From a virus (lineage: Duplodnaviria > Caudoviricetes): DNA of 55,024 nt. The notes beneath the pieces were generated by a model. That model did no database searches, was not told where the DNA came from, and saw nothing but the letters and a program-made list of their open reading frames with translations. Made by a program: the position numbers and the translations under genes. Positions 213 through 14,216 of this stretch are shown here, piece after piece. The stretch spans positions 1 to 55,024 of the IMG/VR virus record IMGVR_UViG_3300031920_000406; one strand, given 5' to 3'. How positions within the stretch are numbered: the stretch's first letter is position 1; each line of letters begins with the position of its first letter.

Positions 213-1487
213 TTACAATAGGGGATTGATTTTAAGGTATTGGTTTGGTTTAAAGTTACGGATGAGGTAATTGGATGCCATTTCTGTTTGTGAGATTTCT
301 CTTGTGATTGGCGATTCTAGGAGGGTTTTAATTCTTTCCAATCTACTTTGAACTTTGCGTTTAGTGAAATATTTTGTTAACAGGGTGGGGCATTCTTGGA
401 TTTGATTTTCGCCTGCTCTATCGCAGATTGTCATTTCGAGCGATTGCATGAGGGATGCTGATGTAGGAACTCCATATATTTTGATAGTTTTTCCGATATA
501 GAATTTCCAACCATTTTCACCGATGGCGGGTCTGAGATATTCCAGTTTAATTGGCATTAGTTCCATGGGTGTGAGAGAGGCGGGGGTAAAGTGGGTAAAG
601 TGTAGGAAGATTCCGAGTTTGGTATTGGATTCTTTATCGCATGATTTCAGGAGTTTGATCAGTTCTGCGAGGTCTTGCAGTATGGAGGTTTTGGTTTCCC
701 AGGGAAAGGCTATGATTACATAGAGTTTAATCGAATATTGTCCTGGTGGGGCATTATAGATTTGGGTAATTTTGTTTATGATATCTTGATTGGAGATGGG
801 TTTATTCACTTTTTTGCGTGTGTTTTCGGACAGGCCGTCGAGTCCTGAGATGATTCTTTTGTTAATATTCCGTTTCCACTGTATATCTTTGAGGAATGGT
901 TCGTTGAATGGGGCGGATCCGGTATATCCCAGGGACGAGAGAGCGGGGGTAGCGGTCCATCCGTATCTGCAGAAGGCGCATTTTTTATTACATCCCACGG
1001 CAGCTTCTGAGTAAGTGGGGTATTCTGGTGGTCTCACACGGTATTTTCTTTTTAGGTTCGGGTCGGCATTGGCGTACCACGTATAGGTGTTTTCTGATTG
1101 GTTTAATATTCCATTAATAATGCCTTCGCTTCGTCCGAAGGATGCGGCGTCGATAAGATGTTTAAACGGTCTAATATTCCAGCACGCGGGTCCTCCCGCG
1201 ATCGTTGGCACATTGGGTTTTTCGTGTAGGAATTTAATAAGGTTGAGGATATCGTGGAATCCCATCAGGGACACGAGGATAATGTCGCACATTTTTTTTG
1301 CATTTATATTAGCCTCTTCTGGATTGATTGGAATGATGCTGTTGTTTTCGTGAGCGTCGTTGATTTCTTTTGCTATGAAGTAGACGCCTTTGAAACCCGT
1401 GATAATTTCCCGCGGGTTATGTTTGACTTTTGAATCATTATATCGTTGTCTGATTTTTTGATTGAAGTGTAGGATCCCAATTCTCAT
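213..1487 (-). CDS. Radical SAM protein with N-terminal B12-binding-like region
   Basis: CxxxCxxC motif GCNKKCAFC; IAGGP motif upstream; overlaps the end of the PAPS reductase gene. Confidence 0.75.
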   Translation of the reverse strand: MRIGILHFNQKIRQRYNDSKVKHNPREIITGFKGVYFIAKEINDAHENNSIIPINPEEANINAKKMCDIILVSLMGFHDILNLIKFLHEKPNVPTIAGGPACWNIRPFKHLIDAASFGRSEGIINGILNQSENTYTWYANADPNLKRKYRVRPPEYPTYSEAAVGCNKKCAFCRYGWTATPALSSLGYTGSAPFNEPFLKDIQWKRNINKRIISGLDGLSENTRKKVNKPISNQDIINKITQIYNAPPGQYSIKLYVIIAFPWETKTSILQDLAELIKLLKSCDKESNTKLGIFLHFTHFTPASLTPMELMPIKLEYLRPAIGENGWKFYIGKTIKIYGVPTSASLMQSLEMTICDRAGENQIQECPTLLTKYFTKRKVQSRLERIKTLLESPITREISQTEMASNYLIRNFKPNQYLKINPLL

Positions 1488-2358
1488 TAATTCTTTCTCC
1501 TATAAATTTGAGTACTTTTCCGCATCCCAGTTTGTTATAGCAATAGTTGAATATTTTTGGGTGTTTTTTTAATAGCAGTGAATATTTTCGAATTACGTCT
1601 TGGAACGGTCCGAACATGCAGTACATGCAGCCGGTTGATGATAGGTTTCCATCCTCATAGATTGATGGTGGTTTGAGTTTTCTTTCTTTGATAAAATTCC
1701 AGCAATCTTCATCTGTCCAGATTGATATTGGGTTGCATATTGTTGTTTTCTTTCCCACATGGATGCACCCTCGTTGTAGATAATTATGTAGTCTTCTTTC
1801 GGAATCATCGGCTTTCAGCCCCAAGATTGGTTTCAATCCTGTTCGTTGTTCGAATATTCGTGCGGGTCCTTTTTTGAGGTGTTGGCAACACGAGTCGGAT
1901 ATTTTAAACGGGGCTTTTACAAGGAACTTCCATTTTTTGGACAGTGAGTATCTTCCTCTTTCTGTGTAATTGTAGAGAGCGGTTGCTGAGTGTGTTTTCC
2001 GAATACGTTCAATATACCCCGCCTGTTCTTTTGATACCACTGGATAGCCGTATTTTGCAATTACCTCTCTTACTGATATTCGGGCGTGTTGGATTTCGCA
2101 GTTTGGCGTATTTCGTATATTTTTCACGATTTCCGGCCATTCTAATCCCGTATGGAAGAATACTGCAGGCGTTTCTGGAAATAGTTCTCGTGCCAGTTCC
2201 AGTACCACCATTGAGTCTTTTCCTCCGGAGTAGGACACATACATTTCTCCGTGCGTAAGGTGGTGGAAATTTTGTAATTTCCCCTTCGCCATTTTCACTT
2301 TCAATCTTAGTGGAAGATTTCTCTTTATTAGAAACTCGGATCGAGTTAGGTGTGCCAT
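1438..2358 (-). CDS. PAPS reductase / DndC-like PP-loop protein (probable start MAHLTR at 2358; ORF open to 2592)
   Basis: SYSGGKDS PP-loop, SDSCC..LKK, PISIW, STGCMYC motifs typical of phage PAPS-reductase-family proteins. Confidence 0.85.
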   Translation of the reverse strand: MAHLTRSEFLIKRNLPLRLKVKMAKGKLQNFHHLTHGEMYVSYSGGKDSMVVLELARELFPETPAVFFHTGLEWPEIVKNIRNTPNCEIQHARISVREVIAKYGYPVVSKEQAGYIERIRKTHSATALYNYTERGRYSLSKKWKFLVKAPFKISDSCCQHLKKGPARIFEQRTGLKPILGLKADDSERRLHNYLQRGCIHVGKKTTICNPISIWTDEDCWNFIKERKLKPPSIYEDGNLSSTGCMYCMFGPFQDVIRKYSLLLKKHPKIFNYCYNKLGCGKVLKFIGERINENWDPTLQSKNQTTI

Positions 2359-2634
2359 ACAGCTCACAATATAGTTCTTGTCTTTTCTCTTCCCAAGATT
2401 TTTTTCCTTTTCCCTTTCTCTTTTTGCTATTAAGTGTGTTATCTTCCTCGTGGTTGAAACTGTTTCGCAGCTTCTGTCTTTTGTATTCCTTTTCTGGCCT
2501 TGCCACTCGTCCGGGGCTTGAGTTCCCGGACTCTCTTTTTTTATATGCTCTACCCTTTTTTGTTTCTTCATTTTTCTCATTTCTATGGACAATACTGTTT
2601 AATTTTCACACCTGAATAGTCCCTGTTTTAAAAC

Positions 2635-2663
2635 TTGACAGCCCCTTAATTTTGTGCTATATT
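2635..2663 (+). promoter_or_regulatory. Sigma70 promoter driving the Arc-like gene and the cassette array
   Basis: TTGACA (2635-2640), 17 bp spacer, TG-n-TATATT (2658-2663). Confidence 0.85.
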
Positions 2664-2704
2664 AGATAGTAACATCAAATTCATTCCAAACCGGAGTCAG
2701 TATA

Positions 2705-2953
2705 ATGTCTAGCTATCCCTTGTATATTTCTGATGATCTCAAAAATGTTATTGCTAAACTATCCCAAAAAAAACATCGGTCCATGAATGCACAGATACTA
2801 CATATTCTCGAAAATTGGGTAAATCAACAGACCCACGATCCGGAAACACACTCTGCGATTACCCCAAGTAACCCAGCTGCATCTGTACAAACTGATGCGG
2901 AGCGGGCTGCGGCTCTAAAAACACAGGGCGACTGGCCGGACAAAACCGCATGA
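2705..2953 (+). CDS. Arc-like ribbon-helix-helix DNA-binding protein
   Basis: YPLYISDDLKNVIAKLSQKKHRSMNAQILHILE matches the Arc family pattern (RSMNxxI); GGAG RBS. Confidence 0.8.
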   Translation: MSSYPLYISDDLKNVIAKLSQKKHRSMNAQILHILENWVNQQTHDPETHSAITPSNPAASVQTDAERAAALKTQGDWPDKTA

Positions 2954-2958
2954 GACCC

Positions 2959-2988
2959 GTTCATCATATATCTCTCGTTGTAAGAAAT
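2959..2988 (+). other. attI-like entry motif 1 (GTTCAtCATAT...GTTGTAAGAAAT)
   Basis: Non-hairpin motif shared with 4430 and 11952; precedes the first cassette. Confidence 0.45.
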
Positions 2989-3132
2989 AGGAGATTGCTT
3001 CCATGGTTGTAGGCTGTAAAATTCCTGAAGGTGTGCAGAAACGAGTAGCTGGCGTCTGTGGTAGCAGGTATAGCCTGGCATTGTCACGAGCACCAAAATC
3101 CATGCACCAGCCTGTTTTGGAGGCAATTTCCT

Positions 3133-3268
3133 ACATCTTCCAACAAAAAAAGGTTTACATTTTGGCAATGGCCATAAAGTGGATATATGGCCACTCCAAT
3201 GTTTATAACGGTAACAGCCCATTTTTGTGTGCCAAAACGTCAACCCTTTATCAAACGTTGTCGGAAAC
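3133..3268 (+). repeat. attC-like site
   Basis: ACATCTTCCAAC ... aaggtttacattttggca / tgccaaaacgtcaaccctt ... GTTGTCGGAAAC. Confidence 0.7.
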
Positions 3269-3294
3269 AAATTTCTTAAAAGTGGAGTTGTAGA

Positions 3295-3534
3295 ATGCCT
3301 GAAAAATTAAACAAATGTCCATTCTGTGGAGGAAGTGCCGGTACTGGGCACACCGGAGGTTTTGAAAACCAGCACTTGATTTATTGTTTTGATTGTGGCG
3401 TTACGATGTCTGGTGATAGTGTCTCTCACGTTGTAGCCCGGTGGAACTATCGGCCACAAATTAAGGAAACCGAATTCAAAACCGTTGGAAACAATTCCGT
3501 TCCCAAAATGATTATAGGAGATTGCTATGACTAA
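3295..3534 (+). CDS. Lar-family (restriction alleviation-like) zinc-binding protein
   Basis: LNKCPFCGG ... IYCFDCG ... VARWNYR. Confidence 0.7.
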   Translation: MPEKLNKCPFCGGSAGTGHTGGFENQHLIYCFDCGVTMSGDSVSHVVARWNYRPQIKETEFKTVGNNSVPKMIIGDCYD

Positions 3535-3850
3535 AATTGATTCTTGGATGCTTTTACACGAAAAGCTTACTGATATGATAGTGCGGGCTAGTGAAATGGC
3601 CCGCGCTGCTTGCCGTAACGGTGAGTTTTATTGGTTAGCACGATATGATTGTTTGCGAGAAGTAGTAATTGAACTTGAACCGATCGCACTATCAGACTCT
3701 AAGGTAGCTGACAACTCCATATCCCCCAAGAAAGAAAGGGATGTAATTTGCCCTCACTGGAACTTTACTACGCAATGTAATTTTTGTGTCGATTGGGTGT
3801 GTACTAAACAACCTTGTGTTTTGACCTGCAACCTACCACCTCTTTCGTGA
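3527..3850 (+). CDS. Hypothetical cassette protein; Cys-rich tail encoded within the attC-like hairpin
   Basis: AGGAG RBS; stop codon lies in the hairpin right arm. Confidence 0.65.
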   Translation: MTKIDSWMLLHEKLTDMIVRASEMARAACRNGEFYWLARYDCLREVVIELEPIALSDSKVADNSISPKKERDVICPHWNFTTQCNFCVDWVCTKQPCVLTCNLPPLS

Positions 3851-3864
3851 ACGTTGTAGGAAAT
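3719..3864 (+). repeat. attC-like site (degenerate left core)
   Basis: ATATCCCCCAAG gaaaggg ... cctctttc gtgaacGTTGTAGGAAAT. Confidence 0.55.
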
Positions 3865-3900
3865 GATTTATAAGTAAATTTAGATTATCACGAAGGTCAT

Positions 3901-4425
3901 ATGACAACAATTATGAGTAGAGCTGCGGCCAAGTCATGGTGGGGTGTTGATCTACCGCTCGGAGTGATTTCTCTTTCCCGGACTCACCCTCACACCGAAT
4001 GGATCGAATTCACAAAATCTGACCTTGTAAAACGTAAAATTAGAAAGCAGGAATCCAATCTTCTCTACCTGCGAAGAGGAAAAGCACAAATACCCTGTTT
4101 TGTTTGGATATTCTACAACAAATCAATTTTATTCGGCGGATGGCACATCTACGTCAAAACCGCATACAAGGATTACCCATTGAATTTTCGTCACGATGAA
4201 CATGAACTAATTGTACAAGCTATGGCGTTGTTCCCCTGTGGGTTTTTACCACTTATTTCTTTATCCGTAGCGTGGATGTCTTATTTTGTAAAGCAATATC
4301 CACATATTGGTTTTAAGCGCGGTTTGCGAGGTTGGAAACAAGGGCTTGCTCAATGCTGGTGTTTGATTGATGAAAATAAGAACCTCACTGATATTTATAG
4401 TATGCCGAAAACGAGATTTAGATGA
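3901..4425 (+). CDS. Hypothetical protein
   Basis: 174-aa ORF directly after a GTTG core. Confidence 0.65.
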   Translation: MTTIMSRAAAKSWWGVDLPLGVISLSRTHPHTEWIEFTKSDLVKRKIRKQESNLLYLRRGKAQIPCFVWIFYNKSILFGGWHIYVKTAYKDYPLNFRHDEHELIVQAMALFPCGFLPLISLSVAWMSYFVKQYPHIGFKRGLRGWKQGLAQCWCLIDENKNLTDIYSMPKTRFR

Positions 4426-4429
4426 AATA

Positions 4430-4457
4430 GTTCACCATATGCGTAGTTGTTAAACAT
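4430..4457 (+). other. attI-like entry motif 2 (GTTCACCATATgcgtaGTTGTTAAACAT)
   Basis: 17-bp AAATAGTTCACCATATG identical at 4425-4441 and 11947-11963. Confidence 0.5.
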
Positions 4458-4508
4458 ATTTTTGCCTTTTGAGTATTGTAGTTCGGGCACTAAGGGAAGG
4501 AAACCGTT

Positions 4509-4706
4509 ATGAAATATAAGTATAAGCATTGTAAGGATTGTTATTATCGTTCTAATCAACTATTTAAGAGAAAATTGGTTTGTAAAGATTGCACAAGCAA
4601 TGATACGTTTTCAAAGGATTCTAATTATTCATATAAAAATTATGAATATGTAGGCACTTATGACGAGGCCGTGAAACTTGCTGCCAAATTTCCTCATCCT
4701 CGTTAA
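4509..4706 (+). CDS. Small Cys-motif cassette protein
   Basis: Two CKDC motifs; RBS; flanked by inverted repeats. Confidence 0.7.
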   Translation: MKYKYKHCKDCYYRSNQLFKRKLVCKDCTSNDTFSKDSNYSYKNYEYVGTYDEAVKLAAKFPHPR

Positions 4707-4741
4707 TCCGTGCCCGAAAGAATAATATTGATGGCAAAAAT

Positions 4742-4812
4742 ACGTCTAACAACACGCAAAGGCAAAAATTGATGGAGCCAACTTCTGCCATTTGCGGAAC
4801 GTTGTCGGAAAT
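4742..4812 (+). repeat. attC-like site
   Basis: ACGTCTAACAAC cgcaaaggcaaaaattg / caacttctgccatttgcg gaacGTTGTCGGAAAT; near-identical copy at 12601. Confidence 0.85.
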
Positions 4813-4846
4813 ATCGTCTGAACCATATTATAAAAGGAGTTTCTAA

Positions 4847-5071
4847 ATGTTTGACGTAATAATTCAATATACCGAACAGGTTTCTGAAGATGCATGGTCG
4901 GTGCGGTATCGTACTCTTAAATTTGACATTCCTGGCCTAAAGGAAGAATTGGAGCGTCATAAAATCAGTTCGCACGTTGTTGATGTCCAGGAGGTCGAAA
5001 CTTCTTTAAAAGCGGAATCAGCCGATACATCCGACAACACGCCAAAGGTTTCAATCGATAAAGCTGACTAA
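4847..5071 (+). CDS. Hypothetical cassette protein
   Basis: AAGGAG RBS; ends inside an attC-like site. Confidence 0.7.
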   Translation: MFDVIIQYTEQVSEDAWSVRYRTLKFDIPGLKEELERHKISSHVVDVQEVETSLKAESADTSDNTPKVSIDKAD

Positions 5072-5098
5072 AACCATTTGCGGAACGTTGTACGAAAT
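5027..5098 (+). repeat. attC-like site
   Basis: ACATCCGACAAC ... aaccatttgcggaacGTTGTACGAAAT; related to the 6606 site. Confidence 0.85.
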
Positions 5099-5145
5099 AC
5101 ACCGCGCTGAGCATTGTGGTTCGGCGCACTAACATTGGAGGTGTC

Positions 5146-5340
5146 ATGCAAAACTTGATTTTACTACAAGATGTGGATTACTTCGGGCGTACAATTCGCC
5201 GTGGTGCCACGTTTAAAAAAGTTGATTCGGACTGGTATGTGCTATGGGAGAATAACAAAGGCATTGTGCACCACTGTCCTACTGTTAAGTTGCATTTCAC
5301 ATCAGTCTCGGAAGGTTACTTTGTCAAACAGTATGCTTAA
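5146..5340 (+). CDS. Hypothetical cassette protein
   Basis: GGAGG RBS then ATG at 5146. Confidence 0.7.
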   Translation: MQNLILLQDVDYFGRTIRRGATFKKVDSDWYVLWENNKGIVHHCPTVKLHFTSVSEGYFVKQYA

Positions 5341-5380
5341 AAAGCCGTGCGCCGAAAGTAAAAAAGCGGATGCGCGGTTT

Positions 5381-5467
5381 AAATCGTGCAACACCCGTAT
5401 GTTTCCATTTGGCGAAGTAGATATGCGGTTGTACCAAACAGCAACATACTTTCCCGTTGTAAGAAAT
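5381..5467 (+). repeat. attC-like site
   Basis: AAATCGTGCAAC gtatgtt / aacatac ... GTTGTAAGAAAT. Confidence 0.7.
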
Positions 5468-5530
5468 AATTTAGCCTTTTTTGATTGTAAAATAAAAACA
5501 CTAAACATTAACTTTTAAAGTGAGGTAAAC

Positions 5531-5779
5531 ATGGCTTGCAAAGATGATAATGCTAAAACTGATATTAAATTTCGTAGCTATAATGTGGGTGATACAATAA
5601 GAATGCCCAATTATCCAACTGCTACTGGCTTCCGTGTCTGGAAAATTGTGGCTGAAAAGTTGGGCGGCGAAGGCCAAGAGAGCACATATGAACTAAACCC
5701 TTTGGATGTTTTGGAAAATCATAAAATTGAAATTCCGACAATAATACTTGAATCGCATTCAGTAATTGAGAGAATCTAA
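5531..5779 (+). CDS. Hypothetical cassette protein (small beta-barrel-like)
   Basis: GAGGT RBS; flanking inverted repeats. Confidence 0.7.
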   Translation: MACKDDNAKTDIKFRSYNVGDTIRMPNYPTATGFRVWKIVAEKLGGEGQESTYELNPLDVLENHKIEIPTIILESHSVIERI

Positions 5780-5819
5780 TTAACCCGTGTTTTTAAAGAA
5801 CATTAGGGAAGGCTAAATT

Positions 5820-5894
5820 ACATCTTACAACAGGTGCCGGAGTGCCATTTTTTAGGAACAAAACAGCATCCTTGCACCGGACGTTGGAGGAAAT
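5820..5894 (+). repeat. attC-like site
   Basis: ACATCTTACAAC ggtgc / gcacc ggacGTTGGAGGAAAT. Confidence 0.75.
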
Positions 5895-5930
5895 TCCATT
5901 TTGAAAACGATTATTATAAGGAGGCATTGA

Positions 5931-6245
5931 ATGTTAATAGAAGAATATCTGCAAATGCGTATACAGTCAGCAGAATCAATTCTTGCTGGTGAAAAGTTGG
6001 CAGGTAATATTGCGAAGGAAATGGCAGAGAAGGCAGCAATTGCAGAATTGCGGGGGGTCGAGGCTTTTCTAAACAATGCCTCCAAAAACTCTAATGTAGC
6101 TCAAAACTCCACATCCTCCAACATATCAAGGGATGTCATTTTTGCTGCTGCTAATAAGTGGGCTAAAGGTAATCCAAACTGTTTCGGTATAAATGGTTTC
6201 CAGGCTGGTGTCGAGTGGGCGCAAAAACAGACACCCGTTGATTAA
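5931..6245 (+). CDS. Hypothetical cassette protein reading through an attC-like site
   Basis: AGGAGG RBS; C-terminal FQAGVEWA phage-type motif. Confidence 0.7.
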   Translation: MLIEEYLQMRIQSAESILAGEKLAGNIAKEMAEKAAIAELRGVEAFLNNASKNSNVAQNSTSSNISRDVIFAAANKWAKGNPNCFGINGFQAGVEWAQKQTPVD

Positions 6246-6259
6246 CCGTTGTCGGAAAT
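6111..6259 (+). repeat. attC-like site
   Basis: ACATCCTCCAAC atcaagggatgtcatttttgc / gcaaaaacagacacccgttgat taaccGTTGTCGGAAAT. Confidence 0.8.
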
Positions 6260-6313
6260 AGAATTTTAAAAAGCATATTATAATATTTTTCACTTAACAT
6301 AAGGAGATTAGTT

Positions 6314-6574
6314 ATGGCAAAAGTACATACGTTTGAATTCGAGCTTGGAGTAGAGTGTTACTCGAAAATTTCTGGTTTTAAAGGAATAATTACATCTCGT
6401 TCCCAACACCTCAACGGTTGTGACAGGTACTGGATAGAACCAAGAGTTGATAAGGAAGGAAAGAAGCCCGATGGTCTATGGTTTGATGACGGCGAACTTA
6501 TTGTTAAAGAGGCTACTAAAAGATTTAAACGGACAAACAATGATAATGGTGGATTTCCGTCACGTATCAAGTAG
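6314..6574 (+). CDS. Conserved-looking phage hypothetical protein (SH3-like)
   Basis: ISGFKGIITSRSQHLNGCDRYWIEP...WFD pattern; AAGGAG RBS. Confidence 0.75.
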   Translation: MAKVHTFEFELGVECYSKISGFKGIITSRSQHLNGCDRYWIEPRVDKEGKKPDGLWFDDGELIVKEATKRFKRTNNDNGGFPSRIK

Positions 6575-6605
6575 CCGTGAAAAATAAATTAAGGAAGAAA
6601 ATTTT

Positions 6606-6676
6606 ACATCCAGCAACACAGAAAGGTTTCAACCGGTAAGGCTGGCAAAAACCGTTTCTGGAACGTTGGAGCGCCA
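6606..6676 (+). repeat. attC-like site
   Basis: ACATCCAGCAAC cagaaaggttt / aaaccgtttctg gaacGTTGGAGCG. Confidence 0.8.
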
Positions 6677-6719
6677 TTTTAAAAATTTTTGAATTGTAGT
6701 TTAACTCACTGGAGGGATT

Positions 6720-6923
6720 GTGGCATCTTGTGAAAAGTGTTGGGAAGATGCTGGAGGTAATCCAGATAAATATAGCAGATTGATAAAATTGCGCGCTGAC
6801 AATCCATGTTCCCCAGAAGACCAAGCTGGCGAAGGTGCTGAAAAATGTCCTACATGCGGCAAATTTGCAATACATATTTATTGCCATGAATGTATGGCGT
6901 GTCATTATAAACTCGTTCGTTAA
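6720..6923 (+). CDS. Small zinc-finger protein
   Basis: CEKC, CPTC, CHEC motifs; GGAGG RBS. Confidence 0.7.
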   Translation: MASCEKCWEDAGGNPDKYSRLIKLRADNPCSPEDQAGEGAEKCPTCGKFAIHIYCHECMACHYKLVR

Positions 6924-6975
6924 AGCAACTGGTTGTCAGTTGCTTTACATCTTACAACACAAAAAGGAGTTTACG

Positions 6976-7146
6976 ATGTCAACTTATGATCCGGTAGAAA
7001 TGTTTGATTGTCATTTGAGACGTATTGCTCGATCATTAGAGAGTTTAATTTCCTTATTAGCGAAATCAGCAGAGAAATCCGACAACAACCAACCAGCAAA
7101 ATCATGCAGAACGTGTAAACATACCTTAAGGTGGTCGGTTTTTTAG
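6976..7146 (+). CDS. Hypothetical protein
   Basis: AAGGAG RBS; contains left-core-like AAATCCGACAAC at 7075-7086. Confidence 0.55.
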   Translation: MSTYDPVEMFDCHLRRIARSLESLISLLAKSAEKSDNNQPAKSCRTCKHTLRWSVF

Positions 7147-7198
7147 GGACTGGCTCAAAAACAAAAACCATTTGTAAATCTTTTAAATTGGAGGGCGC

Positions 7199-7420
7199 TT
7201 GAGAAATTTAACACCGGTTGACTCTTTTGACATCATACAATGTTGTCGGAGAATATGCAATCCTGAAGTTGCTTATAACGAGAACCAATTGACAATGGCT
7301 CACGAGGCAATGACGGTAATGCAAGATGAAGCCGCAAGCATTCGTCAAATTATAGGCCGCGCCGAACAAGTTATTACCGTCGATGAATTGCAAAATGGAG
7401 CAAAAAAAAATTGTGAATAA
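7199..7420 (+). CDS. Hypothetical protein
   Basis: GGAGG RBS, TTG start. Confidence 0.55.
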   Translation: MRNLTPVDSFDIIQCCRRICNPEVAYNENQLTMAHEAMTVMQDEAASIRQIIGRAEQVITVDELQNGAKKNCE

Positions 7421-7635
7421 CGTCGTACAATCATCGGTACCGTGTCCGTCGTGCGGTTCCTGGTATCGAAGCAGAAACACCTGTAAGTGCGGCACTCAGG
7501 TTGCAGAACCGCAACCAAAAGAGCGCGTGATCAGGCAACCAGGGACTGGCAAATTAGGTAAAATGTGGAATAAAAATCTACACCGATACTTGACAGAAAA
7601 AGAAATCAAGTCAGGTATGAAAGGCGGGTAAAAAT

Positions 7636-7902
7636 ATGGGAATGAAGAAAATTTATAGCTGTAATATCTGCCGGGATGAAATTGAGAATCCAACACTTAT
7701 GTATGGTGTGCACTTTTCTAATTTAACTCAGTTCACTTTAGGCGGTTATGCTTGCACCGAGGGTGTGCATATTTGTTTTAGGTGTGCAATTCAACTTAAA
7801 AAACACCTTAATTGCGAAGCGCTAAGCAAAGAGCTTGCGCAGCAGCAAAATATTGAATCGAGCGAACAGCAGGCAACAAATAAGAGGTTTCCTAATGGCT
7901 GA
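7636..7902 (+). CDS. Small zinc-finger protein
   Basis: YSCNIC ... HICFRC. Confidence 0.65.
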   Translation: MGMKKIYSCNICRDEIENPTLMYGVHFSNLTQFTLGGYACTEGVHICFRCAIQLKKHLNCEALSKELAQQQNIESSEQQATNKRFPNG

Positions 7903-8101
7903 ATATCATGAGGATGGTTGTGTGATGGACGTTGAAATTTTAGCTGATCATAGCGATAGTGAATACGAACGGTACACCTTGAAGGTTATAAACATTAAAC
8001 AAAAAAGCCTAATTTTCAAGTCGCCTAAGATTGGCACTGCTTTTGATTGCTCTAAAAAAATAGGTGTGAGTTGTTATTGTTTGTGGAGGCTAATAAAATG
8101 A
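7895..8101 (+). CDS. Hypothetical protein
   Basis: GAGG RBS; overlaps neighbouring ORFs in operon fashion. Confidence 0.55.
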   Translation: MAEYHEDGCVMDVEILADHSDSEYERYTLKVINIKQKSLIFKSPKIGTAFDCSKKIGVSCYCLWRLIK

Positions 8102-8274
8102 GGAATTTATTTACAATCGCAATTATATGTATAGCAATCGTTGTTCCCTTATTATTAGGTTTGATTGTTGCTAGAAGTACAGGTGATAGAGACTTTTTTT
8201 TATTGGGGATTGCGGTCTCGTATGTGTTTACATTTGGGACAATAATATTACTAACCAATTCGACAAAGAAATAA
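8098..8274 (+). CDS. Small two-TM membrane protein
   Basis: Two hydrophobic segments; GGAGG RBS. Confidence 0.55.
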   Translation: MRNLFTIAIICIAIVVPLLLGLIVARSTGDRDFFLLGIAVSYVFTFGTIILLTNSTKK

Positions 8275-8349
8275 ATTAAGTTGAAAGGATATGATATTGG
8301 TTGCGATGCGTAGGCGGCATCCGAACGACCAGCAGAAAGGGAAAAAGAA

Positions 8350-8577
8350 ATGAAAGAAATGGCAGAAATGGCAGAAATATTATATAAATTAAAATTGGGG
8401 GAGGTCTTTTGCCCTAATAGCAATTCATCATGGCAAAGAGTTCCTGGTGGCTGGACGTATGGAAACCTGCATGGGACATGCTTTGTTCCATTCAACAACG
8501 AATTTCAAAACGCTCCAGAAATCACGGTCAACAAGAAAAGGACTGCCTGCTCTATTTGCAAAAAGGATATGAAATGA
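8350..8577 (+). CDS. Hypothetical protein
   Basis: RVPGGW..Y...FVPF phage-type motif. Confidence 0.6.
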   Translation: MKEMAEMAEILYKLKLGEVFCPNSNSSWQRVPGGWTYGNLHGTCFVPFNNEFQNAPEITVNKKRTACSICKKDMK

Positions 8578-8897
8578 AAATTTTACATTTACCGATTGAA
8601 AAATGCTGGTTTGATATGATTCTCTTCGGAGAAAAAAAAGAAGACTATCGAAAAATTAAGCCTCATTGGAACAGTAGGTTGCAGAGTGGCACAAAATTCA
8701 AAAAATTCGATATTGTACTTTTTGAAAACGGATATTCTAAAAATGTGCCGTGGATGAAAGTTGATCTCCTGAACATTCGTTGTGGCGTCGGTAGAGTAGA
8801 ATGGGGAGCGCCTGAACATGAAACGGTATACATTTTACGCCTTGGTAACATATTAGAGGTGTCGTATCCAGGAGGTTTTGAATGGGCGAAAAAATAA
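8574..8897 (+). CDS. ASCH/PUA-like domain protein
   Basis: MKILHLPIEKCWFDMILFGEKKEDYR...FENGY...EWGA. Confidence 0.8.
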   Translation: MKILHLPIEKCWFDMILFGEKKEDYRKIKPHWNSRLQSGTKFKKFDIVLFENGYSKNVPWMKVDLLNIRCGVGRVEWGAPEHETVYILRLGNILEVSYPGGFEWAKK

Positions 8898-9175
8898 AAC
8901 TATGTAAATGCGGTTGTGGCCGCGAGGTGCCGAGTCACAGACAATATGTTGCTGAATGTCAGACACGGGTAAATCGTGAAAGAATGGTTGTCTACAATAG
9001 GGAGCACCGCAACTGTGCCCTCGACTTACGACATGCGCGCACTGTAAAATTAAGAACAATGAAAAAATGTAACAACATTCTCCACGCGCTTGACGTTACG
9101 GCAGCAGAAATATCCGCGCAGGTGGAAAAAATACGATTAAAACACGGGGTGCCGTATAACTTTATTCAAATTTAA
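8882..9175 (+). CDS. Hypothetical protein with CKCGCG motif
   Basis: ORF with GGAGG RBS. Confidence 0.55.
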   Translation: MGEKIKLCKCGCGREVPSHRQYVAECQTRVNRERMVVYNREHRNCALDLRHARTVKLRTMKKCNNILHALDVTAAEISAQVEKIRLKHGVPYNFIQI

Positions 9176-9195
9176 TAGGGCAAAGAAATGAAAAT

Positions 9196-9504
9196 ATGAA
9201 TGAAAAAAAATTCAAAAAAGGTATAGAGACGGTACTCACCGCTATTGCGGATGGGTTTGATAGAAAATTGTATTCTCAAACAAAAGCACAACTCGAAGAA
9301 CATTGGTTTTTTGAATATGATAGCAATTTATCACCACAGAAAAATATATATCAGTTTTGGGATTTGTTAACATTGTATGAAAACTCTTGCCGGCGATGGG
9401 AGGAACACCACAATGGTACAATTTGTGTTGTAGAAAGAGTTAGAGATAAATATTTAATGCCAAAAATCAATCTTTTTTATGTTGAGCTTTTGAAAAATGA
9501 CTAG
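9196..9504 (+). CDS. Hypothetical protein
   Basis: 102-aa ORF in co-oriented array. Confidence 0.6.
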   Translation: MNEKKFKKGIETVLTAIADGFDRKLYSQTKAQLEEHWFFEYDSNLSPQKNIYQFWDLLTLYENSCRRWEEHHNGTICVVERVRDKYLMPKINLFYVELLKND

Positions 9505-9666
9505 AAAAGAGAAAATGAAATACCAGGTCAGAGACGAACAATGCTATACAAAAAAATGCTTCACACCGTTTTCTGGAAACGGCTGGAAAATATGTCGATT
9601 ATATGAAATGGGGCAATGTCCTGATGCTGTTCCAGATGCCCCGCTTAACAGAACGGAGAAAAAGAA

Positions 9667-10431
9667 ATGAACTGGTTACCGGAAATGTGGACGTACTCTG
9701 AATACGTTTCGCACAGATTTATGAGTCGCTATCAAAAAGGAAAATATTACGAGCCTTTGATTGATAGAAATGCATTTTTATACGTTCCATTTGTAAACGA
9801 CAAGGATTTTGCGTTTTTGGCAGAAACGTCATACAAAATTATTATTGCATTTTCAGGTCCCAAGAATCTCCCTGCAATGATAAACAATTTTGATGCATAC
9901 CCTCTCGGTGAAGGAATGATACTTGACGGATTCTACCGTTCATGGAAATATTACAAGGATGCCTTTGACCGATTCTTCCGAGACAATTTTGATGGCCATG
10001 GGAAGGATTTTTCCGGTATCAAGAAAGAGTTGCTGATTACCGGCCATAGTCGCGGTGGCGCCCTGGCTAGTTTGTGTGCCAGGCACTTCTCAAAAAACCG
10101 GCAGAAACCGAACACTTGTTACACGTTTGGTGCACCGCCTCAGGGAACTCAAGAATATGTTGATCAATATAACAAACTTACCGTCCTTAATATTCGAGGT
10201 GTCAACGGCTCTGACATTGTGCCAACAATGTTGTTGCCGCGGAGCCTAGGGTTTCTTCATCAAAATCATTTGCACCATTTTCCACAGCCGCGTTGGCACC
10301 GGTGGTTTCATAAAATCCGTGACCACTATTATTCAAATTACACAAAAGCGATACTAAAATATTGCCGTAAGGTAGGAGACCGTGACGGCGTTGCACAAAT
10401 GAAGCGTGTTCTGAAAAGAGCACGACCGTAA
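9667..10431 (+). CDS. Class 3 lipase (alpha/beta hydrolase)
   Basis: ITGHSRGGALA nucleophile elbow; YTFGAP; DIVP; late DH catalytic His. Confidence 0.85.
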   Translation: MNWLPEMWTYSEYVSHRFMSRYQKGKYYEPLIDRNAFLYVPFVNDKDFAFLAETSYKIIIAFSGPKNLPAMINNFDAYPLGEGMILDGFYRSWKYYKDAFDRFFRDNFDGHGKDFSGIKKELLITGHSRGGALASLCARHFSKNRQKPNTCYTFGAPPQGTQEYVDQYNKLTVLNIRGVNGSDIVPTMLLPRSLGFLHQNHLHHFPQPRWHRWFHKIRDHYYSNYTKAILKYCRKVGDRDGVAQMKRVLKRARP

Positions 10432-10450
10432 TCAATAAAGGAGGAGCAAG

Positions 10451-10675
10451 ATGAAAGAGGGAGATTTGATAGTAGTTTGGCGGGACAACGGAGAAGCGTT
10501 GCTGACAAAAGCTCGTTCAGATCAATTTTTAGATGTAAACAAAAACGATGTGATTTTTGCGATAGGTGTGAGAGGCTGTTATCATTGCACTCATGTTAGA
10601 CCGGTTACCATCCATAAGTGCGTTTTCTCAGAAGATCTTAAGGGTGAAATTTCGTTGTCAAAACGAATATTATAG
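10451..10675 (+). CDS. Hypothetical protein
   Basis: GGAGG RBS. Confidence 0.6.
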   Translation: MKEGDLIVVWRDNGEALLTKARSDQFLDVNKNDVIFAIGVRGCYHCTHVRPVTIHKCVFSEDLKGEISLSKRIL

Positions 10676-10678
10676 GGA

Positions 10679-11065
10679 ATGCAAATGAGTTGTAAATGTC
10701 AAAGTTGCGGTGATCTTTATAAGGTCGATTTAATAATTCCTGATAAGTTATGGGAAATTATTAAACCAAAGGGTAAAGTTAAAGGAGCGGGGTTGCTTTG
10801 CGGTAAATGTATTATTAAATTTCTTGAATTAATCAATGAATACCGGGCACTCCATTTAGTGGGAGCTGACAACTCCCCATCTCCCAACAAGTCAAGTTTG
10901 AGATTGCCGGACGTCAAGCAATGTATTGAACATGCCATGTCTAAATTAGGCGATGATTATTTCAACGTAACGCCGTCAATGTTAATCGGGTGTGTACGTA
11001 GATTTATAGCAAGTGAACTGGAGGGGAAAAATGGGATACAGAAACATAAAACCGGTATTAACTAA
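10679..11065 (+). CDS. Zinc-finger hypothetical protein
   Basis: CQSCG...LW...GLLCGKC; relic left core at 10877-10888. Confidence 0.6.
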   Translation: MQMSCKCQSCGDLYKVDLIIPDKLWEIIKPKGKVKGAGLLCGKCIIKFLELINEYRALHLVGADNSPSPNKSSLRLPDVKQCIEHAMSKLGDDYFNVTPSMLIGCVRRFIASELEGKNGIQKHKTGIN

Positions 11066-11321
11066 TATTTGGGAATTATCTGGTTGCTGTGGCCTGTTCA
11101 CCGGTGACACGTCCCTTAACAATGGGTACGGGTGTAAATCACGCTCAAAAGAAAAAGACGAGGTCGGATGCTGTTATATGTGGGACTGTCCGCTCGCTTA
11201 CTCTGCTAGCCTGGAGGACTTGAAAAAACACGACACTTATCTATACAAAGAATATCTGGATAGTGGAGACGATCCAGAACAGAGTGATTGGATGATACAA
11301 TATAGAGAGGTACAGAAATGA
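11031..11321 (+). CDS. Cys-rich hypothetical protein
   Basis: NNGYGC...GCCYMWDCPLA; GGAGG RBS. Confidence 0.6.
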   Translation: MGYRNIKPVLTNIWELSGCCGLFTGDTSLNNGYGCKSRSKEKDEVGCCYMWDCPLAYSASLEDLKKHDTYLYKEYLDSGDDPEQSDWMIQYREVQK

Positions 11322-11602
11322 TAGAACCTATTCCTGTTCAAATGACTGCAACACCGACCGACTCTGTCTTGATCAACAAACTTAACCAGGTTATTTCTGA
11401 CGTTAACAGATTTTTACCCATTCACAGGAGAAAGGAAAAAATGTCAACAGAAGTCAAAATTCAACGAAAAAAAACCTGGATAGTAAATCATCGGGATAAC
11501 AACCACACTCGTTATGTGTGTTTCGATTGTTGTATTAATTATGTTTCAAAAAATATGACGGTGTGCGTTAAATGTGGGAAGGAAACCACAAAAATTTACT
11601 AG
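11318..11602 (+). CDS. Hypothetical protein with C-terminal zinc ribbon
   Basis: CFDC...CVKCG. Confidence 0.5.
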   Translation: MIEPIPVQMTATPTDSVLINKLNQVISDVNRFLPIHRRKEKMSTEVKIQRKKTWIVNHRDNNHTRYVCFDCCINYVSKNMTVCVKCGKETTKIY

Positions 11603-11739
11603 ACCGAGTTTAGGCCGGGGTTTAAAAATGTATAAAATGATCAATCCAGTTCTATATTTCTTAATGTTCGCGGCGGTCGGTTGCCTGTTCTGGCTGCTCG
11701 TTCACACATTTTCGTTAGAATATAACCAGGAGGTGCCAT

Positions 11740-11952
11740 ATGGATGCATCAGATGCATCAACAATGTTGGAACGTACGAAAGCGCGGTTGATTGAGGCCG
11801 CGGAAAAAGAGTATGGGAAAATTGAACCGTGCAATATAGACCCGTTTACAATTTTCGATGGTGTTCTCTATTTTTGGTTTAATTTGCCAGACAATTCAAC
11901 ACATTTCACACACACCCATCTAATTCACGAGAATACAGAATCGGAAAAATAG
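11740..11952 (+). CDS. Hypothetical protein, paralog of 19376-19576
   Basis: LIEAAEKEYGKI...FWFN...STH; AGGAGG RBS. Confidence 0.65.
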   Translation: MDASDASTMLERTKARLIEAAEKEYGKIEPCNIDPFTIFDGVLYFWFNLPDNSTHFTHTHLIHENTESEK

Positions 11953-11979
11953 TTCACCATATGTCTAGTTGGTGGAAAA
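11952..11979 (+). other. attI-like entry motif 3 (GTTCACCATATgtctaGTTGGTGGAAAA)
   Basis: Shared with 4430 and 2959; starts the second clear run of cassettes. Confidence 0.5.
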
Positions 11980-12009
11980 ATTAATTATTCATAACAGGAG
12001 CGCAAAAAA

Positions 12010-12330
12010 ATGAAAGCAGTGATCGAATTGATTAATGGTGTAGAGGGGGGGTGCATTTGTATCTGTGCAAGTGGTGATGATGGCGGAAGGCGTGTTGCAG
12101 GCCCAAAGCCGTGGGGTGGAGGGGTTGTTGTTAAAAAGTGGATTACAACAGTTGAAGACATTGAAGATGCGCTCCAAAGCATTCGGAACATTAATTCATC
12201 CACCAACAACGAAAGGACTTCAATTTGTCCTGAATGCCATTCGGATGATTCAGATGTTGAATGTGGACTTTCCTTTTGCAATGCTTGTGGTAATAGTTGG
12301 AGGCACGGACAAACTAAATCCGTTTCGTGA
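12010..12330 (+). CDS. Cassette protein; C-terminal zinc ribbon encoded in attC-like loop
   Basis: RVAGPKPWGGG motif; CPECH...CNACG lies between the hairpin arms. Confidence 0.7.
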   Translation: MKAVIELINGVEGGCICICASGDDGGRRVAGPKPWGGGVVVKKWITTVEDIEDALQSIRNINSSTNNERTSICPECHSDDSDVECGLSFCNACGNSWRHGQTKSVS

Positions 12331-12344
12331 ACGTTGTAAGAAAT
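12196..12344 (+). repeat. attC-like site
   Basis: TCATCCACCAAC acgaaagga..tttgtcc / ggacaaa..tccgtttcgt gaacGTTGTAAGAAAT. Confidence 0.8.
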
Positions 12345-12395
12345 AAATCAAATTTTTATTATTATAGTTTGCTCATTAACAGAAAGGGAAATGAA

Positions 12396-12566
12396 ATGAA
12401 AAATGTGCCAAAGTATATGATTTATGATGGTAGGTATCGGTTTGACGAAGATCGAGCGATTGTAATGGATATGGCCGATACTCTTTCAGAAGCAAACGCG
12501 GCCGCCAAAGATCAAGGGGATGCCGTAGTAGTTGATTCTAAAACAGGTGCAATTGTATACGGGTAG
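12396..12566 (+). CDS. Small hypothetical cassette protein
   Basis: MKNVPKYMIYDGRY...; flanked by AAATCAAATT / AATTTGATTT. Confidence 0.6.
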   Translation: MKNVPKYMIYDGRYRFDEDRAIVMDMADTLSEANAAAKDQGDAVVVDSKTGAIVYG

Positions 12567-12600
12567 CCCATTCGCAAAAGAACTGGTTGTAATTTGATTT

Positions 12601-12670
12601 ACATCTTACAACACGCAAAGGTAAAAATTGATGGAGCCAACTTCTACCATTTGCCAACGTTGTGACAAAA
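12601..12670 (+). repeat. attC-like site (sister of 4742)
   Basis: Near-identical to 4742-4812 with compensatory ggC..Gcc to ggT..Acc change. Confidence 0.85.
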
Positions 12671-12692
12671 TAATTTTTTCTTTGGAGTTATA

Positions 12693-12938
12693 ATGTTTTC
12701 TAAATTTGAATTAGCAGTAATCGAAGTTGATGTTTCTCATGTTTTAAAGTTGGTTTCTCTTGATGACCAGCAAAGGAAAACACGGGAGAATATTGTAAAA
12801 AAAATTACTTCGCACAACAAACAAAGTGGAGAAATAGAATGTACTAACTGTGGAATTCTTTTGCCACCAATGGAGCCAGGAGAAGGTGACCCGTCTAAAA
12901 GTGGCTATTTGTGCCGCACGTGTTTTGGTTTGGATTAA
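12693..12938 (+). CDS. Cassette protein; zinc ribbon in attC-like loop
   Basis: GGAG RBS; CTNCG...LCRTC. Confidence 0.65.
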   Translation: MFSKFELAVIEVDVSHVLKLVSLDDQQRKTRENIVKKITSHNKQSGEIECTNCGILLPPMEPGEGDPSKSGYLCRTCFGLD

Positions 12939-12980
12939 TAGACATTTTACTTCTCACGTTTATCAACTGTTGTACGAAAT
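12807..12980 (+). repeat. attC-like site
   Basis: ACTTCGCACAAC aaagtggaga..aatgt / acatttt..tctcacgttt ... GTTGTACGAAAT. Confidence 0.65.
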
Positions 12981-13130
12981 ACAGGCTTACTATAAGAGCC
13001 GTTTTAAAAGCAGAATGAAATGGAAAAAAATTAACAAAACACTGGCTGAAATAGCAAAAAAATACTGCTCATTGGTATACGAAATGGCAAAATCGCACAA
13101 TGTGGAAATCTGAACCCTGGAAGGGATGTT

Positions 13131-13427
13131 ATGAGTTTACGAAAAAAACAATCCAAATTTGCACAGATGTTGATATTATTGTTTGCCTATATTGTTCAGG
13201 GCGGCTATGAGATCACACTTGGAGACGCTGCAAGAATTGATAGGCGAGGACACTCGAAAAACAGTAAACACTATGTGAGGCTGGCAATTGACCTCAATCT
13301 GTTTAAAGACGGAAAATATCTACGAGATACGGCAGATCACGAAAAAATAGGGATCTTCTGGGAAGCTATCGGGGGAACATGGGGCGGTCGATTTACAAAT
13401 CCTGACGGCAACCATTATCAATTGTAA
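13131..13427 (+). CDS. Peptidase M15 family endolysin
   Basis: SKH..RLAIDLN Zn motif; WGGRF..PDGNHY. Confidence 0.85.
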   Translation: MSLRKKQSKFAQMLILLFAYIVQGGYEITLGDAARIDRRGHSKNSKHYVRLAIDLNLFKDGKYLRDTADHEKIGIFWEAIGGTWGGRFTNPDGNHYQL

Positions 13428-13640
13428 GTTGGTTTTATTTTTTCCAATAAATGTGTTGAGCCTGGCAATCTAGGTGATTTTATCTGTGATGGCGAATATG
13501 ATGATTTCGAGTGTAGGCATTTTTATATAGCTTTGGAATCAAAATTACATTCACACAACCCACAACAAACCTCGGGCGGGTGCGTAAAAATGAATCTAAC
13601 CAATTACATAGTTTGGATTCTCCGAATCATCACCCTTGTT

Positions 13641-14216
13641 TTAATTCTTAATATAATTTTTTTCTTTTTGTAGTAGCTCTCGCGCCGCTTTTCGTTCTGA
13701 CAATGTTTCTATCCATGTTTTCTTCGCGTTTCTGACTACGCCATGTAGTCCGTTCTTTAGCGCGATTTCTTCTAACGACATCAGTGCTTTCCAGTCGCCC
13801 TCATCGAATTGTGAAGGATTCATTTCTACGTGGAATATTGTTTTTCGTCCTGACCACACTATTGGTTTTTTGAAGCGTATTGCCGATTCATAACGGTGCC
13901 ACCATCGTCCAACCTGGCCCCAACCATCATCATTGACTAGATTGCACTCTACCATGATTACCGCTCCTACAAGCGCCCTTTTAGGGTATTCTATCGCACG
14001 TCCCATTCGTCCTATAACCTTTTGTGAAAGATATTGTTCCGCTTCTATTCTACCCTGCACATGTTCTAATGCACTTTTCCATTTTGTGTCCTCTCTTTGA
14101 CTAGCGTGAATTAATAATACTCCACGATAGTTTGATTTCCATGTCCGATTCTCTATTTTCTTTCTACCCCCGACCACGAACTCCGCCCAGGGTTGACGTA
14201 TTGATATTGCTACCAT
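13641..14216 (-). CDS. ASCH domain protein
   Basis: AISIRQPWA..VVGGRKKIENRTWKSNYRGVLLIHAS. Confidence 0.9.
   Translation of the reverse strand: MVAISIRQPWAEFVVGGRKKIENRTWKSNYRGVLLIHASQREDTKWKSALEHVQGRIEAEQYLSQKVIGRMGRAIEYPKRALVGAVIMVECNLVNDDGWGQVGRWWHRYESAIRFKKPIVWSGRKTIFHVEMNPSQFDEGDWKALMSLEEIALKNGLHGVVRNAKKTWIETLSERKAARELLQKEKNYIKN

Follow-up and report, generated by a model that had tools for sequence, protein, structure and literature searches.

What are the nested inverted repeats that enclose the small genes of an early phage region, and do they have a part in moving those genes? The locus that raises this question lies in a 55,024-nt stretch of a source phage of the Caudoviricetes, IMG/VR record IMGVR_UViG_3300031920_000406 (62% complete by CheckV), which was analyzed at its full length and is called the window here. 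A preliminary description, made from the sequence alone, had noted that the open reading frames (ORFs) of several gene cassettes between positions 4446 and 6617 are each surrounded by inverted repeats private to the cassette, had judged this to be non-standard for classical cassettes, and had proposed that a single-stranded cassette circle would fold into a dumbbell with the gene as a loop. Overall, what we find looks like an integron-like, non-classical cassette system with cassette-specific stems of single-stranded DNA (ssDNA), an apparently undescribed way of packaging and moving phage genes.

The repeats themselves are real. The seven arm pairs listed in the preliminary description are all exact reverse complements and lie exactly where it placed them, and the enrichment check that it had called for gave a clear answer: 22 exact 9-mer inverted pairs, with members 150-450 nt apart, were counted in 4446-6617, a number reached in none of 500 dinucleotide-preserving shuffles of the same segment (mean, 4.2; standard deviation [SD], 2.8; maximum, 17). 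An independent repeat search recovered arms running from GTTG to CAAC at 4446/4753, 4801/5038, 5087/5392, and 5456/5831 and further ones at 5883/6122, 11968/12207, and 12333/12612. The arms belong to an array at 2977-12980 that is built of repeated units, each consisting of GTTG, a cassette body, CAAC, a small bulged hairpin, and the next GTTG (Table 1). That the repeats are nested and specific to each cassette was borne out as well, given that 9 of the 11 candidate cassettes in the window rank their own partner first; the two candidates without a cognate preference are 3853-4119 and 6665-6958. Across all 11, cognate flanks pair at a mean of -20.1 kcal/mol, compared to -9.2 kcal/mol (SD, 2.4) for non-cognate flanks, and the preference persists when the outer 12 nt are removed (-14.2 versus -7.8 kcal/mol).

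Related cassettes were found in sediment metagenome DNA, which allowed the same features to be examined across a family. One degenerate pattern led to 50 metagenome loci and 7 viral contigs. End pairs of the GTTG...CAAC type, accepted when at least 15 of 20 positions were complementary, occur in 21 of the 50 metagenome loci (54 pairs over 256.5 kb); a background of unrelated viral loci gave 22 low-complexity pairs in 986 kb. Our main set of 92 kb comprised window positions 2500-13700 and 23 of the 50 metagenome loci, chosen by eye for a site-like context, and it holds 63 end pairs, compared to 0-2 in each of 20 shuffles. Given that the pairs had been chosen for complementarity, the shuffles serve as the significance test. 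Sixty of the 63 pairs are distinct, and four of these (two nested alternates and two long, doubtful pairs) were left out of the inner-arm test, leaving 56 cassettes. Over the 60 distinct pairs, positions 5-9 and 12-21 of the outer stem are ~90% Watson-Crick paired with all four pair types represented, and two conserved mismatches stand between them, A.A at position 10 (45/60) and A.C at position 11 (44/60). The inner arms, which lie outside the selection, also prefer their own partners (cognate, -12.3 kcal/mol; non-cognate, -8.1 kcal/mol; SD, 2.4), with the cognate partner ranking first in 14 of the 56 cassettes and among the top three in 32. The arms covary among homologous cassettes, a property on which the preliminary description had staked its reading.

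The anatomy of a typical unit could be defined from this set. The outer stem of ~21 bp starts exactly at GTTG/CAAC; its left side reads GTTG-nnn-G-n-AA-T followed by an arm of ~9 nt, and the stem holds the conserved mismatches as a 2x2 AA/CA block. An internal loop of ~13 nt separates it from an inner stem of 6-10 bp, which adjoins the ORF. On the left, the loop ends in (A/T/G)TT(A/G)TA, 32-35 nt from GTTG, in 39 of the 56 cassettes, and on the right it ends in GGA(A/G), ~21 nt from the end of the body, in 40. The reverse complement of the left-loop motif is TATAAT (15/56) or TACAAT (13/56), as at 4474-4481, 5112-5119, and 12363-12369; when the non-coding strand is folded, its loop exposes this -10-like box. 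The hairpin between CAAC and the next GTTG opens with a single spacer nucleotide, followed by 6 bp, an extra base bulging from the 3' arm, 4 more bp, a loop of 20-100 nt, and the 4-nt spacer NNAC. Of 44 distinct hairpins, 35 conform to this register and 1 to its mirror image, and the hairpin stems covary. By automatic ORF calls, ~13 of the 56 cassettes, including the four CAC-type cassettes of the window, contain the entire ORF, which has a ribosome-binding site of its own, inside the pair of inner arms. In the remaining cassettes, the ORF continues past the right arm and CAAC and enters the hairpin segment, which there codes for a short tail, a zinc-ribbon-like tail, or a shared helical tail. 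Conservation of the DNA motifs holds irrespective of the reading frame. The CAC-T(T)AA / CCGTG junction that had been described at the inner arms is present in that form in cassettes 4446, 5087, 5456, and 6248 and is not general: a loose version of the pattern on both sides was found in 6 of the 56 cassettes (five in the window and one relative), and cassette 12333 carries a CAT-TAA / CCC-ATT variant. The CAC junction marks a single scaffold subfamily.

The family also carries a record of movement. A Dam-methylase cassette of ~520 bp occurs in four contigs, each with different upstream and downstream neighbors, and its homology extends from the G of GTTG to the next GTTG past the hairpin. The upstream contexts have only the arrangement of a hairpin arm, 4-5 nt, and GTTG in common and no sequence. 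Such likeness in structure alone speaks for structure- or site-specific exchange and against homology as its basis. Hairpins of 91-98% identity are found with different neighbors on both sides as well, joining bodies that are unrelated; those at 4754-4800 and 12613-12658 of the window are an example (91% identity, different flanks on both sides), and both cores thus behave as break points. Among the 7 viral contigs is the complete genome of a jumbo phage (G001; 164 kb, 28% GC, direct terminal repeats), in which an island of 32-37% GC at 52-58 kb (L208-L216) holds two clear cassettes. Because this phage has no core proteins in common with the window and its cassettes lie in a GC-rich island, we conclude that the cassettes move between unrelated phages. 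In sequencing run X6, from another sample of the same study as the window, a 20.9-kb contig of a relative joins sequence corresponding to 4737-4786 to that of 12810-12956; the order there is the right loop of another cassette, a hairpin of the 4754 type, and the tail part of ORF 12693-12938.

Within the cassettes, the scaffold is better conserved than the gene that it carries. Among three versions of the Dam cassette, invariant columns make up 40/40 of the left scaffold, 50/54 of the right scaffold, and 72/74 of the hairpin, compared to 323/433 of the ORF body. A homologue that is 70% identical to the Dam ORF (L158-1983) is enclosed by arms that are entirely different and still complementary. 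It had been suggested that the same scaffold might be found with other ORFs or with almost none, and both were observed. Two scaffolds are each common to three cassettes whose ORF bodies are unrelated and differ in length (one of them in window cassette 4801 and in L161 and L191), and minimal, near-empty cassettes of 148-175 bp exist. In the shared scaffolds, similarity ends beside the inner arms. This comparison gave no support to the idea of a second site-specific recombination site at the inner junction, given that the breaks between scaffold and ORF fall near the inner arms and not at one fixed nucleotide.

We lean slightly toward a reading in which the private stems pair the cassette's own ends in ssDNA and guide the precise exchange of single cassettes by a putative structure-specific enzyme. 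The nested repeats would then be the two halves of a cassette-specific stem within a long folded ssDNA structure, part of a phage-borne mobile-cassette system in which bodies (GTTG...CAAC) alternate with bulged hairpins (CAAC-A-stem...stem-NNAC-GTTG) and units would be exchanged at the GTTG/CAAC cores. Everything from one GTTG to the next would travel together, which keeps the two ends of a cassette matched to each other. If the strands fold in this way in vivo, pairing across the ORF would let one stem hold both crossover cores at its base, and in an excised circle it would form one continuous hairpin of ~190 nt (inner stem, loop, outer stem, core, and bulged hairpin). Such pairing may promote precise excision and insertion by a structure-specific single-strand recombinase or transposase, presumably encoded outside the window, and the scaffold may be a reusable vehicle that has received different ORFs.

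Computationally, the dumbbell idea fared well. In all 44 cases examined, the junction of a circular cassette folds more stably than that of the array, the difference being 12 kcal/mol (-36.4 versus -24.4 kcal/mol). When three units were folded as ssDNA, both stems, with the ORF between them, appeared in the minimum-free-energy and centroid folds; the z-scores of the whole folds are -4.81 for 4446-4800, -3.66 for 5456-5882, and a weak -1.29 for 5087-5455. Read on the coding strand, the mismatches of the stems comprise 32 A.C and 16 G.T (p=0.03), with G.T making up ~1.3% of ~1200 pairs, and the conserved A.C at position 11 is a wobble pair on the other strand only. By a weak test, this asymmetry speaks more for DNA folded on its non-coding strand than for a structure in mRNA.

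Several observations weigh against this proposal. The strand asymmetry is of modest significance, the whole-fold score of 5087-5455 is low, and in many cassettes the left loop bears a Shine-Dalgarno box and spacer (GGAG-ATTATA-ATG), a ribosome-open loop that fits a role in RNA. The polarity of movement is ambiguous, given that the Dam cassette moves with its downstream hairpin, yet hairpins recur with both neighbors changed. No cassette-less and no circular form was seen in the assembled contigs, and none of 466 hairpins is convincingly flanked by cognate arms, as would be the sign of a circle or tandem; 5 marginal matches (14/20) among them are accounted for by the conserved motif. With regard to the enzyme, the window (62% complete) encodes no tyrosine recombinase, resolvase, or Y1 transposase (no match to PF00589, PF00239, or PF01797), and the 100% complete jumbo phage likewise has no tyrosine recombinase (no match to PF00589). 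The sole IS110-type (PF01548) match in the window is below threshold and lies inside RecT. The jumbo phage encodes a single resolvase and a single Y1 transposase, both far from its cassette island (the Y1 transposase 90 kb from the cassettes), and our recombinase searches found nothing common to the cassette carriers. At the end of a 71.6-kb contig with eight cassettes, an IS607-like pair consisting of a MerR-resolvase and a TnpB-like protein was observed (L154, 272-2323).

In their behavior, the cassettes resemble those of integrons. Promoterless single-ORF units form a co-oriented array, imperfect hairpins with AAC...GTT cores lie between the ORFs, conservation is of structure and not of sequence, the left end matches the unit's own right-hand core, one cassette appears with its downstream hairpin in different contexts, and the cargo includes orphan DNA methylases. 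An imperfect hairpin of the attC type (unpaired spacer, L stem, variable end, structural conservation) is present in 35 of 44 segments. As a control, we used the integron of Porticoccus sp. W117 (L228), a chance encounter with an IntI match of 454 bits, above the cut-off, 8 cassettes, and 9 attC sites. Its cassettes match at 7-13 of the first 20 nt only, and beyond the R box cognate and non-cognate pairing do not differ (-8.1 and -8.2 kcal/mol), in agreement with the earlier view that the stems are not a feature of classical cassettes. Phage TJE1, which carries a published CALIN (PMC9892861), has no long end pairing and is a negative control for the long arms only. Unlike in integron cassettes, complementarity between the ends of the phage cassettes is not confined to the R box: on either side of the ORF, it reaches ~21 + 9 bp inward. 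The bulge is also placed differently: it fits better on the 3' arm in 31 of the 44 phage hairpins and on the 5' arm in 5, with 8 ties, and it lies on the 5' arm in 9 of 9 Porticoccus attC sites. According to the extract of Bouvier et al. 2009 (PMC2727003), the extrahelical bases of attC are on the R''-L'' arm, adjoining the upstream ORF. Relative to the gene, the phage hairpins have their bulge and long spacer on the other of the two arms, and classical rules would thus tie the hairpin to the other neighbor than the one observed. CAAC...GTTG is invariant in the sites found, and other positions often violate the R/Y rule (GTTGTAA, TTACAAC). The phage hairpins further differ in that they reassort independently of both neighbors and in that many ORFs cross the core into the hairpin, which codes for a protein tail. 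No IntI was found in the window or in the complete carrier phage; the neighbors of the array are PAPS-reductase-like and radical-SAM-like. The array thus works like one of integron cassettes but fails tests that define an attC site. The L-stem of the Porticoccus attC (GCAAAGGCAGC...GCTGCTTTGGGC) resembles the stems of the phage hairpins (CGCAAAGGCA...TGCCATTTGCG), from which it differs in the arm that bears the bulge; judged by sequence likeness, the two may share common descent.

Other explanations of the repeats have to be set against these data. A chance or compositional artifact, for which the AT-richness of the region and nothing else speaks, is practically negligible and already refuted, given that the observed counts were reached in 0/500 and 0/20 shuffles and that the cognate and non-cognate controls exclude it as well. 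The main rival moves the function to RNA: the arms would enclose each cistron in a long early transcript from 2635, for RNase III-type processing or as a 5'-3' clamp, and would insulate and stabilize the mRNA of each mobile gene with its ribosome-binding site open in the internal loop. All cassettes are indeed co-oriented and lie downstream of a strong sigma-70-like site (near-consensus TTGACA-17-TATATT at 2635-2663), which is the sole 11/12 promoter match on the array strand in 2500-13700, another being found on the opposite strand at 10696. The left loop contains GGAG and an A/T-rich spacer, ends 32-35 nt from GTTG in 39 of the 56 cassettes, and is where many ORFs begin; the outer stem is long enough for a double-strand RNase, and TAA often follows the inner left arm, as though halting incoming ribosomes. 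Nonetheless, pairs of the G.U type are rare on the mRNA strand and fewer than A.C, the reverse of what RNA stems show, and the A.C of position 11 wobbles on the other strand only. The stems also begin exactly at the DNA exchange cores, and Rfam gave no match at the gathering cut-off or even at E<=1. We consider an RNA-level element unlikely.

The two remaining alternatives keep the repeats in DNA and give them no present role of their own. If the system consisted of ordinary integron cassettes (a CALIN) moved by an IntI of the host, the hairpins would be plain attC sites and the long arms an extended R box without a role. The extract of Qi et al. 2023 (PMC9892861) describes CALINs in virulent phages, with attC sites recombinable by IntI1 and a cargo that includes orphan Dam methylases, as is also found here; the AAC...GTT cores, unpaired spacer, bulged stem, and variable loop of our hairpins and the likeness of the stem GCAAAGGCA to Porticoccus attC stems point the same way. 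This explanation is nevertheless improbable in light of the bulge and spacer on the arm beside GTTG, opposite to the control attC sites and to the rule in the extract of Bouvier et al. 2009, of hairpins that travel with the other neighbor than classical rules predict, and of long arms that classical cassettes lack. In addition, no bacterial array of this kind emerged from a pattern scan of 185,579 species genomes, which gave only 24 lone matches in unrelated contexts with 1 marginal end pair. Alternatively, the arms could be a footprint of cassette birth, the remains of a palindromic element of ~110 nt at whose tip ORFs were inserted. Removal of the insert from cassettes of the CAC/.../GTG type leaves a perfect palindrome center, and the near-empty scaffolds and the scaffolds shared by different ORFs would be expected from such an origin. 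The scaffold is better conserved than the ORF, and the arms covary between homologous cassettes; both argue for continuing selection and make a footprint without present function improbable.

Among phage elements, the nearest analogues of these cassettes are the PeSLs of T4-type phages, which, according to the extract of Arbiol et al. 2010 (PMC2839356), combine a sigma-70 promoter with a terminator stem-loop, are exchanged by homologous recombination, and have been demonstrated to form mini-circles. As PeSLs are described there, both systems place short repeated motifs around small non-essential ORFs in plastic phage regions and show modular shuffling. The phage cassettes differ in that promoter-like sites are not enriched (36 in window positions 2500-13700, compared to 31.9 expected), the hairpins are long-looped and without a T-run, the upstream contexts share structure and GTTG only, and the private inverted ends are absent from the PeSLs of that description. 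Identity with PeSLs was rejected, given that the repeats do not each hold a promoter and a terminator. A reading of the GTTG...TATTGT spacing as a promoter was also rejected, as the spacing is inconsistent and there is no enrichment.

IS200/IS605 elements move by single-strand "peel and paste" with their own Y1 transposase, and they are not known to carry terminal inverted repeats able to pair with one another. The phage units are like them in having hairpins near the ends, a short core cut a few nucleotides from the foot of the hairpin (here NNAC/GTTG), a strand-specific single-strand logic, and insertion beside an existing hairpin, which would build tandem arrays. They are unlike them in that the window has no Y1 (PF01797) match and the hairpin is found solely at the right-hand side of each unit; an IS200/IS605-type element was rejected, as neither a Y1 (HUH) transposase in the window nor subterminal hairpins at both ends were found. 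Correia and ERIC elements are palindromes resembling miniature inverted-repeat transposable elements (MITEs), with inverted repeats conserved across the family, and are not known to carry an ORF. They share with the phage units an imperfect palindrome of ~110 nt and longer forms by internal insertion, whereas the phage arms vary by cassette and enclose genes. A transposon with terminal inverted repeats, or a MITE, was likewise rejected: the arms differ between cassettes except for GTTGnnnGnAAT / ACAnCnnnCAAC, and the flanks read NNAC/.../A with no duplication, no search aimed at DDE-family enzymes having been made.

Table 1. Coordinates of the cassettes and associated features in the window
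Feature	Position	Strand	Description
RHH gene	2705-2953		Upstream of first cassette body
First cassette body in array	2977-3144	+	Cognate duplex -22.5 kcal/mol, rank 1; arms aligned; ORF from 3003 runs through right arm; no hairpin upstream
Lar-like restriction-alleviation gene	3295-3534		Same early region as array; not shown inside a cassette
Cassette 1, outer left arm	4446-4466	+	21 nt, 90% complementary to 4733-4753
Cassette 1, inner left arm	4482-4490	+	TTCGGGCAC, then TAA; partner 4710-4718
Cassette 1, ORF	4509-4706	+	65 aa, no family; entirely inside inner arms
Cassette 1, right half	4710-4753	+	CC, inner arm 4710-4718, loop 4719-4732, outer arm 4733-4753 to CAAC
Inter-cassette hairpin	4754-4800	+	1-nt 5' spacer, 6 bp, 3'-arm bulge, 4 bp, loop, 4-nt 3' spacer GAAC
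Cassette 2, body	4801-5038	+	Ends pair 4801-4834 / 5005-5038; ORF 4847-5071 runs through right arm and CAAC into hairpin 5039-5086
Cassette 3	5087-5392	+	Outer arms 5087-5107 / 5372-5392; inner arms 5120-5129 / 5347-5356; ORF 5146-5340
Hairpin after cassette 3	5393-5455	+	
Cassette 4	5456-5831	+	Outer arms 5456-5478 / 5809-5831; inner arms 5493-5501 / 5787-5795; ORF 5531-5779
Hairpin after cassette 4	5832-5882	+	
Cassette 5, body	5883-6122	+	Ends pair 5883-5904 / 6101-6122; ORF 5931-6245 continues through long inter-cassette segment 6123-6247
Cassette 6	6248-6617	+	Outer arms 6248-6267 / 6598-6617 (weaker, 15/20); inner arms 6285-6293 / 6577-6585
Cassette 6, ORF	6314-6574	+	phrog_16275
Hairpin after cassette 6	6618-6664	+	
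Chimeric cassette	6665-6958	+	Left scaffold of CAC type; no matching right arm; end-pair rank 7 and 9; right end 6922-6958 is 85% identical to 12576-12612 of cassette 12333-12612
Cassette body with paired ends	11968-12207	+	ORF 12010-12330 runs through into 125-nt segment encoding zinc-ribbon-like tail
Cassette	12333-12612	+	Outer arms 12333-12354 / 12591-12612; inner arms are the CAT-TAA / CCC-ATT variant
Hairpin after cassette 12333-12612	12613-12658	+	

Within the array, two left junctions (4428-4449 and 11952-11971) share an identical 20-nt upstream sequence (AATAGTTCACCATATG..TA, then GTTG). They sit directly after a stop codon and lack a hairpin, constituting a second kind of junction and possibly an entry site. 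A repeated coding segment with a CAAC-type box was also observed at 3696-3749, 6088-6141, and 10861-10890 (copies 1 and 2, 81% identity); it falls in ORFs 3527-3850, 5931-6245, and 10679-11065 as paralogous tails tied to long inter-cassette segments. Small ORFs on the + strand occupy 2700-13400 of the window, 3' of the sigma-70-like site. The window further encodes a portal protein, a tail spike, a RecE-like exonuclease, and RecT. Beside the array and divergent from it, a PAPS-reductase-domain protein and a radical-SAM-like protein are encoded at 213-2592 (- strand); these are not recombinases and may form a DNA-modification module. The RecT/RecE-like pair is located at 16963-18899, and 49532-53221 codes for a protein of 1229 aa that contains an ATP-dependent ligase domain of the LigD-like kind. 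As a speculation, ligase-type end joining might be relevant to DNA capture at broken palindromes.

Other routes to relatives yielded less than the degenerate pattern. A blastn search against the phage collection gave no match, the hairpin pattern had 0 matches in viral contigs, and an exact 14-mer scan of viral contigs gave single chance matches only, the loci of which were reused as the background set. Searches via the RecE-like, terminase-like, 174-aa, and 86-aa proteins returned no relatives beyond four distant RecE-like loci without the motif, and tblastn of the 86-aa ORF found 8 distant homologues, all in unrelated phages. The sequencing runs containing the stretch come from the probable source sample only, with no RNA run listed. 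In the literature searched, which left most subscription journals outside, there was no account of cassette-specific, ORF-enclosing stems in phage cassettes.

In summary, we tentatively suggest, as a possibility in which we have less confidence than in the reading favored above, that these arrays represent a distinct class of mobile cassettes of tailed phages and not a displaced bacterial integron. In this class, the gene would lie in the apical loop of an ssDNA site of ~190 nt, private stems would hold the ends together, exchange at GTTG/CAAC would be carried out by a non-IntI enzyme (possibly a host enzyme or an unrecognized one), and the scaffold would serve as a gene-capture vehicle. How gene cassettes form is named as an outstanding question of integron biology in the extract of PMC8618304. 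If the suggestion of a distinct class is true, the birth of cassettes could be read directly from pairs with the same scaffold and different ORFs: given that the scaffold is conserved above the gene, that near-empty scaffolds exist, and that identical scaffolds carry different genes, capture events become directly comparable. The system would be a second, structurally different route for the movement of single genes via folded ssDNA, in phages, and its private stems could be used as a signature for finding such cassettes in viromes. It would also provide a platform for shuffling phage counter-defense genes, with orphan Dam methylases found in the relatives, and would mirror the cassettes of defense genes that bacterial integrons reportedly carry, according to preprints.

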